A stretch of DNA of 64,000 nucleotides from Eledone cirrhosa (GCA_964016885.1 OZ024754.1:7874001-7938000), one strand, 5' to 3'; positions 11,673-41,014 are shown, counted from the stretch's first letter. The notes: generated from the letters alone by a model not told the origin. Numbers and translations: made by a program.

Positions 11673-11714
11673 AGTTTTTGAAAAGCATTTAGAAATGCAC
11701 AACCGGTAAAAACT
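11673..11714 (+). ncRNA. Degenerate hammerhead-like motif, family E (U3-A8 core)
   Basis: agttt-TTGAAAA-gcatt(taga)aatgc-ACAA-ccgg-TA-aaaact; G12 lost; lies within inverted repeat 11630-11677/11780-11828. Confidence 0.45.
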
Positions 11715-12149
11715 TAAAAACTTAAAACCACAACTGAATACAATCACTAATACTCTTTTATTCCTAATTAAACCCTTTTTCAACTGTGAACAATTTGTCA
11801 GCATTTTCTATTCCGTTTACCAATATATATATATATATACACTTATACATTCCCACGTGTGTGTGTGTGTGTAAAAGAGAGAGAAAGGATGTGTGTGAGA
11901 GAGAGAGAGCGAAAGAAAAAGACAAACGGAGAAAAAAGAGAAAAAGAGCGAGGGGTGACTGTGAGGTAGAGTGGCCGTTAGAGAAAAGGAATGTAACCAA
12001 TCCTCTGATCGCAACAGTAAAACAGTTTATTTTGTATTTGTATTGTTGAAGTTATTTGCCCATTGCCTTCCATAAATTACCTCATCTTATATGTAGATAT
12101 ACTTAAAATATATATTTAACTTTTTTATATAATCTAAAGTATAAAGTCT

Positions 12150-12412
12150 GTCTCAAACCATAAGACTTGTAAGGCCGTTGCTTATCCCGGTTTCATGGCG
12201 TGAAGCGACTGAGAGTACAAGACCCCCCCCCCCTTCCTGGACAGAACGCCAGTCCATCGCAGGGTTAAACTCGCATCTATTACTGGTGCTCATTTTCAGC
12301 TGAGTATAGAAAAGCAACGTGAAATTAAGTGCTTTCCTCAATAACATAACACACAACCCAGCCCAGGAATCGAACCCACGGTATTATGACAGTATGTTCA
12401 ACACCTTTACCA
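12150..12412 (-). mobile_element. tRNA-derived SINE (second family)
   Basis: B box GGTTCGATTCC and body ctgcgatggactggcg..ctgtccagg shared with 62575-62840. Confidence 0.75.
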
Positions 12413-12870
12413 CATCTTGACGTTGATATAATTCTGAGTCAATATTTTTATAGATGCGAAAAATACATTTAGTATGATATTGTAGTAACATACAATGATG
12501 AATGTCGGGGCATATTTCATAATTAATCAGAGAGAAGTCATGTTCTTAGCGATGATAACATGTTTTTGTATGGATTCCATAATTTGCAATCTGCAGTATC
12601 AATATGGCTGTTCTATAGTGTGCTGACGAAGCCTGACAATATTTCAATAAATCAAAAGATTGTTAGAGAAATCTATCATTAGAAGATAGGTTATTTCAAA
12701 GAAAGATGATTATATCCTATATTCGAAGGTGGAACAGAAAAATCAAAAGAAGCTAGAAATTACCTACTTCAGCGAATATTATATACTGTGAAATGCCAAA
12801 ATGTTATGTGGTATTTAACCTAGAAGGAGAGGACACATCTGTTTCAAGCGGAGAACTTCACTAGTATCAT

Positions 12871-12909
<39 letters not shown>

Positions 12910-12914
<5 letters not shown>

Positions 12915-13103
12915 TTAAATAAACAACATAAGGCAATTATTTCATTTACAAGTGGTTTCTTGAAAGCAAACAAATTTTGCTTTCACTCATCAGAATGAAA
13001 AAATCTGGTGTATTTATTGACATTGGATTTTAAAAACAAAAATATAATCTATATGAAAGTGAGGCTGGACAAGGAAGAAGGAAAGGAAAAATAAACACAC
13101 ATG

Positions 13104-13137
<34 letters not shown>

Positions 13138-13142
13138 TACAT

Positions 13143-13214
<72 letters not shown>

Positions 13215-13507
13215 AGAAATGTAAGCCATCGCCGCACTTGGACTAAAGAAACTATTCAGCCTGATAGTGGGGCCAAGAACCCTCGGAGAAATGGAAAAAG
13301 ATGAATATTGACGTACATGGGAGCCGAACCCACATCCCAGGCCATCCGGACCACTGTATCACCATCTACACCAACACATCATGGGTGATGTGTTGGTGTA
13401 AATGGTAGCACAGTGGTCCGGACAATGTTGTTTATTACATAACTATTAAGGTCTGTAACCTACATAGAGCACTTTTGTTTCCTGGACTTTTCCGACGGAA
13501 TTACTTC

Positions 13508-13510
<3 letters not shown>
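12910..13510. mobile_element. Non-coding pLTR-like element in (TA)n with inverted ends, hammerhead and nested tRNA-like hairpin
   Basis: agttattaaataaacaacat / atgttgtttattacataact inverted; related copy at 48680-48825. Confidence 0.55.
12940..13000 (-). ncRNA. Type I hammerhead ribozyme, family F
   Basis: tttcatt-CTGATGA-g-tgaaagcaaa(atttg)tttgctttca-a-GAAAC-cactt-GTA-aatgaaa: 7-bp stem I, 10-bp stem II, GUA triplet. Confidence 0.8.
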
Positions 13511-13564
<54 letters not shown>

Positions 13565-13930
13565 TAATATATATATATATATATTAATAATATATATATA
13601 TATATATACATATATATTAATAATATATATATATATATATACAAGGTGTATCGAAAATACTATATTTTAAAGATATATTATTTAAACAAATGACCGCATA
13701 ATTATGCGGTAACTTGTACAATGTTTGTCTGAATATAAAGTTTTATTCGTTTTTATAACACACATATACATATAATACATGTATTTATATACATATCTAT
13801 ATATACATATATAAATACATATATAAATACATATATATATACATATATAAATACATATATATATATACATATATAATACATATATATATATACATATATA
13901 ATACATATATATATATACATATATAATACA

Positions 13931-13966
<36 letters not shown>

Positions 13967-14202
13967 CATATATAATACATATATATATATATATACATAT
14001 ATAATACATATATATATATACATACATATATATATATACATACATATATAATACATATATATATATACATACATATATAATACATATATATATATACATA
14101 CATATATAATACATATATATATATATACATATATAATACATATATATATATATATATATACATATATAATACATATATATATATATAATACATATATAAT
14201 AC

Positions 14203-38227: not shown

Positions 38228-38414
38228 AATTGTTTCTACATTTGGCACAAGGTCAGCAATTACCTAGTAGATTACTGGTACTTTATTTTATCGATCCCGT
38301 AAGGATGAAAAGCAAAGTTAACGTCGACGGGATGTGAACTCGGTTCGTAAAGGGAAGTACCTCTTTGCTGGAAAGCATGGCGTCCGACCCTCTACCGACA
38401 CTGCCAATCCACCA
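38228..38414 (-). mobile_element. Nin-domain SINE
   Basis: Consensus match; TSD acagataat. Confidence 0.88.
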
Positions 38415-38516
38415 CAGATAATGAAGGCCAACATAAATGAGATGCAGATAAGGTATCGTTAGATTAAAGTATATTATTTTATTTGACTTAGTTTGCTAAG
38501 TCTCCTCTTTGTTTTG

Positions 38517-38555
<39 letters not shown>

Positions 38556-38682
38556 AAGTAGAAGTGGTAGTCGGAAGTCCGACAAACAAATGTTTATAAC
38601 TGATTTAGAGCACTCAACAGTTACTGGAGTAAATATTCAATGATATTAAATAAATGGAAACTATATTTATAAAACCATATTT

Positions 38683-38746
38683 ATTTTTTTATATATATTT
38701 CAAGGGTAACCAAGACAACAATGGTACGCTTTCATCAGATAAAATA
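38683..38746 (-). ncRNA. Type I hammerhead, family C
   Basis: tattttat-CTGATGA-aagcgtacca..tggttaccctt-GAAA-tatata-TA-aaaaaata. Confidence 0.7.
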
Positions 38747-38967
38747 CAAGTTTGTTTTATAAATAGAGATATACCCATGAAAATCATACCTTATCGGTTG
38801 GAAATTCACTGGATAGTGGAAATATATTAGGGATTATTCAAACTTATGTGTGAATATGCAAATGAATATGTAAATAATTGAAAAACAACCGTTTATTTAA
38901 ATTTAAACCAAAATCCCTCATAACTCATTAAAACAATTATCTATAACACGATATACCCATCTATTCA

Positions 38968-39175
38968 TTTACTTATCTATTTACTTATCTATTTACTTAT
39001 CTATTTACTTATCTATTTACTTATCTATTTACTTATCTATTTACTTATCTATTTACTTATCTATTTACTTATCTATTTACTTATCTATTTACTTATCTAT
39101 TTACTTATCTATTTACTTATCTATTTACTTATCTATTTACTTATTTATTTACTTATTTATTTATCTATCTACTTA
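38968..39175. repeat. 12-bp tandem repeat (tttacttatcta)n
   Basis: Directly visible. Confidence 0.95.
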
Positions 39176-39517
39176 TAACAGAAAATATTATATTAGAAAC
39201 GAATTTTAAACAAAGAATAATCGTAAATACACATAATATTAGATTTATACTTAGAATACATTTCCCCCCAAAATTAACGTTATATTGATCTTCTCTTGTC
39301 TATTTCCTCTCTATCTCTCTCGTAATATTTTCTATCTTTATCCCCTTATATTTTTTTTCTCTCTGTTTCTCCAGTGTCATTTAAATAAACGGTTGTTTTT
39401 AAATTATTCACATATTCACTTGCATATTCACACATAAGTTTGAATAATCCCTAATATATTTCCAACCGATAAGGTATGATTTTCATGGGTATGTCTCTAT
39501 TTATAAAACAAACTTTG

Positions 39518-39581
39518 TATTTTATCTGATGAAAGCGTACCAATGTTGTCTTGGTTACCCTTGAAATATATATAATAAAAT
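39518..39581 (+). ncRNA. Type I hammerhead, family C
   Basis: attttat-CTGATGA-aagcgtacca..tggttaccctt-GAAA-tatata-TA-ataaaat. Confidence 0.8.
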
Positions 39582-39970
39582 GAATATGGTTTTATAAATA
39601 TATATATATATATATACCTATATAACCCCTGCAACCCTGATGATATCCAATGATGTTGACTTGTTCTTCTTTTTGGTAAATATCATCTTGGTTAAGAGAG
39701 TGGGACTGACTTTGTGCAGTGCCTTTGCTCACTATAAAAGCTTCACGGCACAGACATTGCTTTATATCTGGAGATCTCTCTGAACTTGTCGTCACAGGGT
39801 ATCATGGGCCCAGCACTATGTGTCAATAATTGTCACAAGTGTAGTGTTTGTACCAGAGTTTCCAAGTCGCTGGCTGGACTAAAAAATCACACTCGTTCAG
39901 CGCATCGGTAGAGGTTCTCCTATATGGATATAAAGTAGTGGCCGTACTCGAAAACGAGTTGGCAGCCACC

Positions 39971-40037
<67 letters not shown>

Positions 40038-40198
40038 AAATACTGGTACCCTTGAAATATATATAATAAAATAAATATGGTTTTATAAAGATAGTTTCCA
40101 TTTATTAATATTATTGATATTATAGTCCAGAAGAAAACTGTTGAGTGCTTCTAATCCGTTATAAATAACTGTTGAATAATCAACAAATTAAATAACTC

Positions 40199-40237
<39 letters not shown>

Positions 40238-40973
40238 TCATATATGTATGGATTTCGTCAGCACGCTTCCATCTATTTTCGTGCTTACCCGATCAAAAGA
40301 ATATCCACCTTCTTTCATACTAAATACTCCATATATGAAATGGATATTTTACATTCATACATATAAAAGCCATATCGAAATAATGCTTCTCCTTAAAATA
40401 TAGCCGCTGGCAAATTCATTTTCTTCCATTTTAAAACAAAACTTTTTTGCAAATATTTTCACTCGAATAAACTTTATTTCCATATATGGCCGAACGAGTA
40501 GTCAAGTATCACGTATAAGGCGCTAAGAAAGCCGTAAACGTTGAAATAATGCAGTTTAGTTAAATGATGTAAACAAAGTATTTTAGTTCTAAAGAAGTAG
40601 TTAAATAATAGTTCATATTTATTTATCGGGGTATTTACTAATAGTAAAGATAACCAACTTGTTTATATTTGTCTTGATATTGTCGTTATTGTCGCTGAAG
40701 GCGAAGTAGAATTCCTCGTGTTTGTGATGTATGTATGATATGGAAATTAATTCTTTCTGTCACACATTACCTATCAACAACACTAAATTCTAAAACCATT
40801 CAAATACACACACACATATATATTTTTAAAAATAGAGGTGTGACACACGAGTTGTGATATATTAGTAACAAGGAAAAGAAAATGCTGACAAATTTGTACC
40901 AGTGAAAATTAGTTTAATTAGGAATAAGTATAAATTAGTAATAAGTATTAGTTAGTATTCAGTTTTAGTTTTA

Positions 40974-41014
40974 AGTTTTTACCGGTTGCGCATTTCTTAT
41001 GCTTTTCAAAAATA
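40974..41014 (-). ncRNA. Hammerhead-like motif, family E (U3-A8, GCAA)
   Basis: ttt-TTGAAAA-gcat(aagaa)atgc-GCAA-ccgg-TA-aaa. Confidence 0.55.

Follow-up and report, generated by a model that had tools for sequence, protein, structure and literature searches.

Can a hammerhead ribozyme that departs from the canonical core at positions 3 and 8 and, in one family, at position 13 still cut RNA in living cells? The question is raised by three short motifs in a 64,000-nucleotide stretch of Eledone cirrhosa DNA (GCA_964016885.1 OZ024754.1:7874001-7938000), the full length of which is called the window here. All three read TTGAAAA, stem II, NNAA, CCGG and TA, as a preliminary description of this DNA had it, and their cores up to residue 17 lie at 11678-11708 (+; copy 1), 26439-26410 (-; copy 2) and 41009-40980 (-; copy 3). 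They follow the type I core order of YUGANRA, stem II, GAAA, helix III and UH, closed by stem I, and a relaxed type I hammerhead descriptor gave three matches in the window versus none in 60 dinucleotide shuffles. The preliminary description assigned the motifs to one hammerhead family; the hammerheads stand, but the single family does not, as there are two (A and B), and the Penelope-like retroelements (PLEs) that carry them had been overlooked. The reading we favor, with a probability of roughly 0.6, is that these are type I hammerheads in the pseudo-long terminal repeats (pLTRs) of two young PLE families, which pair through the palindrome ACCGGU and cut after CCGGUA, and that the family B core, with C at position 13, cuts itself.

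Carrier elements and core consensus

Judged by sequence, the motifs belong to the 3' ends, or pLTRs, of two related PLEs of the Neptune/Nematis type. Upstream of longer copies, the layout comprises a pLTR with the hammerhead, a first open reading frame (ORF1) of 455 amino acids, a reverse transcriptase (RT), a CX4CxxC linker, a GIY-YIG endonuclease (EN), a 3' untranslated region of about 1 kb and another pLTR, the two pLTRs being 98.8% identical. Pfam recognizes GIY-YIG (E 8.7e-8) and RVT_1 (E 9.8e-7, 0.5 bit below its cut-off). The C-terminal position of GIY-YIG after the RT, in a single 784-amino-acid frame in intact B copies, is that of endonuclease-containing (EN+) elements, and the linker (CDRPNCGIC in B, CGRSNCGTC in A) has the CX2-5CxxC form of Neptune/Nematis. 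Partial tandems of pLTRs, inversions, 5' truncation and a tail likewise agree with an EN+ PLE. The partial tandems place two same-strand hammerheads on one transcript, spaced 4,815 nt (B) or 4,679 nt (A) apart. Both families appear young. For family B, 104 scored RT copies share 98-100% identity and more than 40 of them have the open 784-amino-acid frame; 19 intact B ORFs, drawn from 20 regions selected for an intact ORF, have a mean identity of 99.6%. The 19 intact ORFs of family A (775 amino acids) are 98.9% identical. Between A and B, the RT-endonuclease is 56% identical.

In the 3.0-Gb genome, the pattern common to both families occurs 25,924 times; a reversed control gave no match. Consensus searches anchored on the flanks only, which keeps the two families separate, and core positions were scored by eye. 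Among the first 100 rows for family B, representing 79 loci, U3 and A8 occur in 79/79, G12 in 78/79 and C13 in 77/79; for family A (11,820 matches), U3, A8 and A13 occur in all of the first 100 rows. The Watson-Crick pair between positions 3 and 8 is thus kept throughout and, in family B, the general base G12 almost throughout, and U3-A8 is the family consensus rather than decay of a canonical one, as the preliminary description had proposed. G8 was seen in 53 copies, each of which has U3 (C3-G8: 0/53), so a C3-G8 form of the A/B scaffold was not found. The C13 that had been noted in two window copies is also consensus: GCAA has 11,191 matches versus 155 for any other base at position 13 on the B stem, and the latter are distributed over A, G and T as expected from scattered mutation. 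C13 occurs in three family B subfamilies, and hammerheads beside intact B ORFs carry U3, A8 and C13 in 37/37 cases. C13 is fixed in family B. Since A13 counts as invariant, family B is a variant hammerhead rather than a canonical member; family A retains A13.

Random decay as the origin of U3-A8 or C13 is ruled out by the family consensus and the copies beside intact ORFs. Assembly error was likewise rejected: in contigs of run X1, possibly the source sample, no core variant other than a loop II deletion is listed at or above 3% (runs X4 and X6, with one and nine low-depth contigs, were left out of this comparison). A pattern for another possible C13 family, one with a C3-G8 core, gave 188 matches versus 62 in controls, with no hairpin-forming family in the 100 listed rows. 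Among genome contigs, three distant relatives were found (L162-L164), two of them with hammerheads, both of the canonical CUGACGA (C3-G8) and GAAA type; U3-A8 and C13 therefore look derived. These three PLEs sit in bacterial genome bins, likely as host contamination. A pattern scan of metagenomes returned a single match, which has no PLE similarity and was taken as chance, and no relative was found in viral contigs.

The preliminary description had read the palindrome CCGG as a pointer to dimers. The pointer was apt, yet the palindrome is longer: with A15.1 and U16.1 included, helix III is ACCGGU, for which the predicted duplex has -8.3 kcal/mol and forms in 5/5 cofolds. When A and B are aligned, the hammerhead stands out as a conserved island, and stems I and II differ by one compensatory change each. 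As a separate observation, C13 creates a second palindrome, UGCGCA, directly upstream of ACCGGU in family B (e.g., window 40986-40991, -).

A further observation concerns the coding region. In A as in B, the ORF1 and RT-endonuclease frames overlap in the -1 register (L071:3807-3873, -; L145:3871-3958, +), and the slippery site CATTTTTTAGAC is the same in both although the proteins are only 56% identical. This EN+ PLE overlap likely reflects programmed -1 frameshifting.

Chimeric insertions at the predicted cut

The evidence that carries the case for cutting comes from insertions in which another RNA is joined to the element. In a survey of U6 3' ends, 69 of 108 matches were examined (all 67 of the listed matches that lie outside one tandem array, and two copies from the array; eight of the 108 are unlisted). 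Three are sense joins to family A and two are sense joins to family B, and 5/5 start at nucleotide 1 of the cut-to-cut monomer, directly after CCGGUA in both families; among the 69 examined matches, none joins elsewhere in the A/B cut-to-cut monomer. The A-run bears this out to the nucleotide. After CCGGT it counts five in 105/105 B1 copies of family B and three in 78/79 A copies, while the chimeras have four (B1) and two (A), i.e., one A fewer.

A separate search addressed the B1 cut window. GG is missing ahead of the downstream flank in 99 matches, of which 74 were examined; the other 25 carry a prefix from an 8-nt repeat expansion. The 74 include 14 events in which the sequence fused to the downstream flank comes from a cellular RNA or, in sense orientation, from the ORF of the element itself; the donors are U6 (2), 18S (2), the 28S 3' end (2) and sense ORF pieces (8). 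The U6 identity in one event is backed by Rfam (E 3.8e-8), and one of the two 28S joins is a 15-nt match judged by eye. Six of the 14 joins are exact and without microhomology. Two control windows yielded 0/30 examined (of 32) and 0/30 examined (of 53), against which the 14 events have P = 2.6e-6 and the clean six alone P = 0.004. The family A cut window, for which 30 of 185 matches were examined, likewise yielded an exact join to an 18S piece. Because the chimeras start exactly where the 5'-OH end of a hammerhead product would lie, cutting in living cells is likely.

The U6 survey also brought up chimeras with other repeats. In L330, L337 and L361 (and L357 and L334), another repeat is joined at an identical nucleotide (CCGAAGCTGAA...), which suggests another precise 5'-OH end and perhaps another ribozyme. 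Common starts are seen in the pairs L326/L335, L350/L381 and L341/L364. The largest chimera class has a 3' tail like that of a long interspersed nuclear element (LINE), with ragged junctions near CAAGGGCGGTG (L325 and 17 other loci). The tandem array holds at least 33 U6 copies at a spacing of about 1.8 kb (G000:C19:31778863-31840331).

Mechanistically, two hammerheads would pair through ACCGGU and then cut, leaving a product with a 5'-OH. A host RtcB-type ligase could close the cut-to-cut monomer into a circle, and the 5'-OH end could be mis-joined by the same ligase to U6, to rRNA pieces or to broken RNA of the element; the sense ORF joins would then be circles of broken RNA. Copying of such ligated templates into (TA)n sites by the RT-endonuclease would produce partial tandems and inverted stubs like the window copies, with hammerhead read-through in partial tandems stemming from re-ligated or uncut templates. 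Hammerhead structures contain a ground-state G8-A13 pair. A8 would remove this pair, and we propose that C13 is tolerated for this reason. The wider picture, in which an amplifying animal retrotransposon runs on a U3-A8 and C13 hammerhead and the U6, rRNA and self chimeras are a fossil record of in vivo cutting that feeds ligase-made circles, is tentative, and we hold it at slightly less than an even chance.

Several points weigh against self-cutting hammerheads in both families. Eight of the 14 B1 joins are ambiguous by 1-4 nt, though compatible with the cut; only two U6 events belong to family B, both first met in the cut-window search, and the U6 chimeras are known from the assembly alone. 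About 57 of several thousand B1 copies begin at the cut and most do not, many insertions run through the hammerhead, and a general accumulation of 5' ends at this site was discarded as weak at most. Stem I of family B consists of only three U-A pairs, and folding predictions place the hammerhead 0.4 kcal/mol above the minimum-energy structure. In favor of the hammerheads, 0/31 of their columns vary across three B subfamilies up to 14% apart, versus 36/222 flanking ones (P = 0.006; 72/83 copies clustered, 11 singletons excluded); this support is modest because the conserved block reaches 18 nt upstream of the hammerhead and the copies were gathered with motif filters that bias the test. The literature adds to the points against. 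A13 is described as part of the invariant core (PMC3088659), the GAAA column of the 2014 alignment holds only GAAA or AGAAA (PMC4209133), the sole 3-8 swap rescued in a deep mutational scan is G-C (PMC9901934), and minimal hammerheads cleave poorly in vitro (PMC4209133).

The chimeras fix an RNA end and not its maker, so the same junctions could have arisen if family A cut in trans or if a start site was combined with template jumping. The former, in which the A13 core of family A cuts family B RNA at the right bond in a heterodimer while the C13 core is dead, is unlikely in our view. It is favored by the ACCGGU common to both families, which are both young and have intact ORFs, and by the usual invariance of A13 (PMC3088659), and the chimeras would look alike whichever core was responsible. 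Yet an A core would form a stem I of only two pairs with a B substrate (CCUU against AAAA), and the enzyme half of B (UUGAAAA and stem II) is unchanged among the diverged subfamilies. We regard it as rather improbable that the 5' end is a transcription start or protein nuclease site in the pLTR, followed by template jumping of the RT, with the hammerhead as a relic. Penelope pLTRs do contain promoters (PMC6765202), hammerheads may merely parasitize PLEs (Craig et al., PMC8557442), and both the 28S 3' end as a donor and the microhomology at some joins would fit. However, the end coincides with the predicted scissile bond in two families of unlike downstream sequence, it follows A17 and does not lie at U^A, no extra G is present at the U6 joins, and where U6 is joined to the LINE-like tail (18 loci of this genome) the junctions are ragged.

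Finally, C13 may have been an inactivating change that hitch-hiked in a successful master element, such that family B has lost the ability to cut and the junctions arose by chance. Naiad elements are reported to thrive without canonical hammerheads (PMC8557442), and overall 5' ends show a modest excess at the cut at most. This explanation is nonetheless very improbable and largely refuted, as the U6 joins of family B are exact in 2/2 cases (chance about 4e-5 over 150 nt) and the 14 cut-window events contrast with none in the control windows. Cutting by the hammerheads of both families themselves, C13 included, remains the reading we prefer.

The three copies in the window

Each window copy is a short repeat with a (TA)n end. 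Stem II is GCAG/CTGC in copy 2 and GCAT/ATGC in copies 1 and 3, the alternation that the preliminary description had picked out, and the second core strand reads ACAA, GAAA and GCAA in copies 1, 2 and 3, respectively. Copy 2 belongs to family A and copies 1 and 3 to family B. On the 5' side of copies 1 and 2 lies a piece of the respective repeat in inverted orientation.

Copy 1 (B1; U3-A8, C13, G12A; predicted cut 11708^11709) lacks G12, as it reads ACAA; the change is likely CpG decay, and its hammerhead is probably dead. It lies in the 5'-truncated 3' end of a B1 pLTR with a (TA)n end (11675..11829, +; 92.7% to the pLTR of the intact copy L127). Beside it stands an inverted pLTR end with a 30-40 nt tail (11595..11676, -; 95.3% match). 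The read-through RNA of both folds at -72.7 kcal/mol, and the inverted end would lock it in a long hairpin. Copy 2 (U3-A8, canonical GAAA; predicted cut 26410^26409) is part of a 5'-truncated family A pLTR with a (TA)n end (26330..26678, -; 86.9% to the intact copy L145). Its insertion includes an inverted family A pLTR end (26751..26913, +; 90.2% match), and an extra short family A pLTR fragment is found at 26177..26243 (+; 88.6% match). Copy 3 (U3-A8, G12, C13; predicted cut 40980^40979) represents the TAAG-loop subfamily of family B, and its 29-nt core has 332 exact matches in the genome. The surrounding 5'-truncated family B pLTR, with a tail and flanked by microsatellites, spans 40816..41052 (-; 80.6% to B1). 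Copies 2 and 3 have intact cores in promoter-poor stubs with 14.6 kb between them. No ORFs of families A and B were found within the 64-kb window, and all three copies are probably inert stubs.

Hammerhead was absent among the best 150 of 422 matches in an Rfam scan of the window, and the repeat-finder output is dominated by microsatellites. Elsewhere in the window, a C-terminal GIY-YIG-like fragment of another PLE family (3372-3990, -) has a YIGET motif and no Pfam match. LINE-type RT fragments occur at 5305-6826 and about 11290-11360 (-), with about 4 kb of TA-rich microsatellite between them. Long near-perfect hairpins typical of inverted insertions lie at 13343-13424 and 50321-50416, the latter including CTGATGA followed by GAAA.

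Relation to known systems and meaning

The preliminary description took U3-A8 as the sign of an unrecognized lineage. This does not hold, as UUGAAAA/U3-A8 hammerheads of PLEs are already known: Cervera and de la Peña (2014, PMC4209133) counted about 1,300 in PLEs of Schistosoma mansoni, and Perreault et al. (2011, PMC3088659) reported natural U3-A8 covariation. Family 4 of S. mansoni has the identical UUGAAAA core. The S. mansoni type also agrees with A and B in pLTR location, G10.1-C11.1, palindromic helix III and the dimer model, and its elements likewise occur chiefly as single truncated copies and opposite-strand pairs. In contrast, A and B have no extra base after A9, a stem II of 4-5 bp and A at position 17, and the GCAA of family B does not appear in the alignment of that paper. 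There, in vitro activity is low and in vivo evidence is not given; in A and B, chimeric insertions mark the cut. The variants named in the text of PMC3088659 are U3-A8, A6C, A6a, U13a and U15.1-A16.1, none of them substituted at position 13. The C13 of family B thus appears to be a new variant at this position, as far as the literature comparison reached. Lünse, Weinberg and Breaker reportedly described, in 2017, small PLE hammerhead variants with a shrunken stem III that cleave as dimers. No published A13C hammerhead family was found in a comparison that did not extend to those variants and some supplements, which may include GCAA.

With regard to the carrier, A and B resemble the Neptune/Nematis EN+ PLEs (Craig et al. 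2021, PMC8557442) in the C-terminal GIY-YIG, the CX2-5CxxC linker and the DKG motif, as well as in partial tandems, an inverted 5'-truncated copy, a 30-40 nt tail and microsatellite targets. The ORF1 and RT-endonuclease overlap sets them apart, as EN+ elements are described there with a single ORF; a figure legend mentions a frameshift, though the clade is not evident from it. According to Moldovan et al. (2019, PMC6789731), RtcB needs a 2',3'-cyclic phosphate and a 5'-OH to join U6 to retroelement RNA, and RtcB circularizes retrozyme monomers in vitro (PMC7229834). As in the U6/LINE-1 chimeras, those of A and B link the U6 3' end to a retroelement RNA, with retrotransposition as the following step. 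The LINE-1 junctions are variable (PMC6789731), whereas 5/5 in A and B fall on one nucleotide, the hammerhead cut. Judged by titles, no published PLE chimeras formed via RtcB ligation were found.

The in vivo role of minimal PLE hammerheads is listed as open, with no in vivo evidence in PMC4209133 and an unclear function in PMC8557442. Junctions on the scissile bond offer sequence-level evidence on this point together with a simple genome-only assay and, if the reading is true, the chimera read-out could be used in any genome. An active family in which C13 is fixed would broaden the hammerhead core found in nature; families of the C13 type are overlooked by descriptors that demand GAAA. With A13 in A and C13 in B, the sister families are a ready-made test pair.

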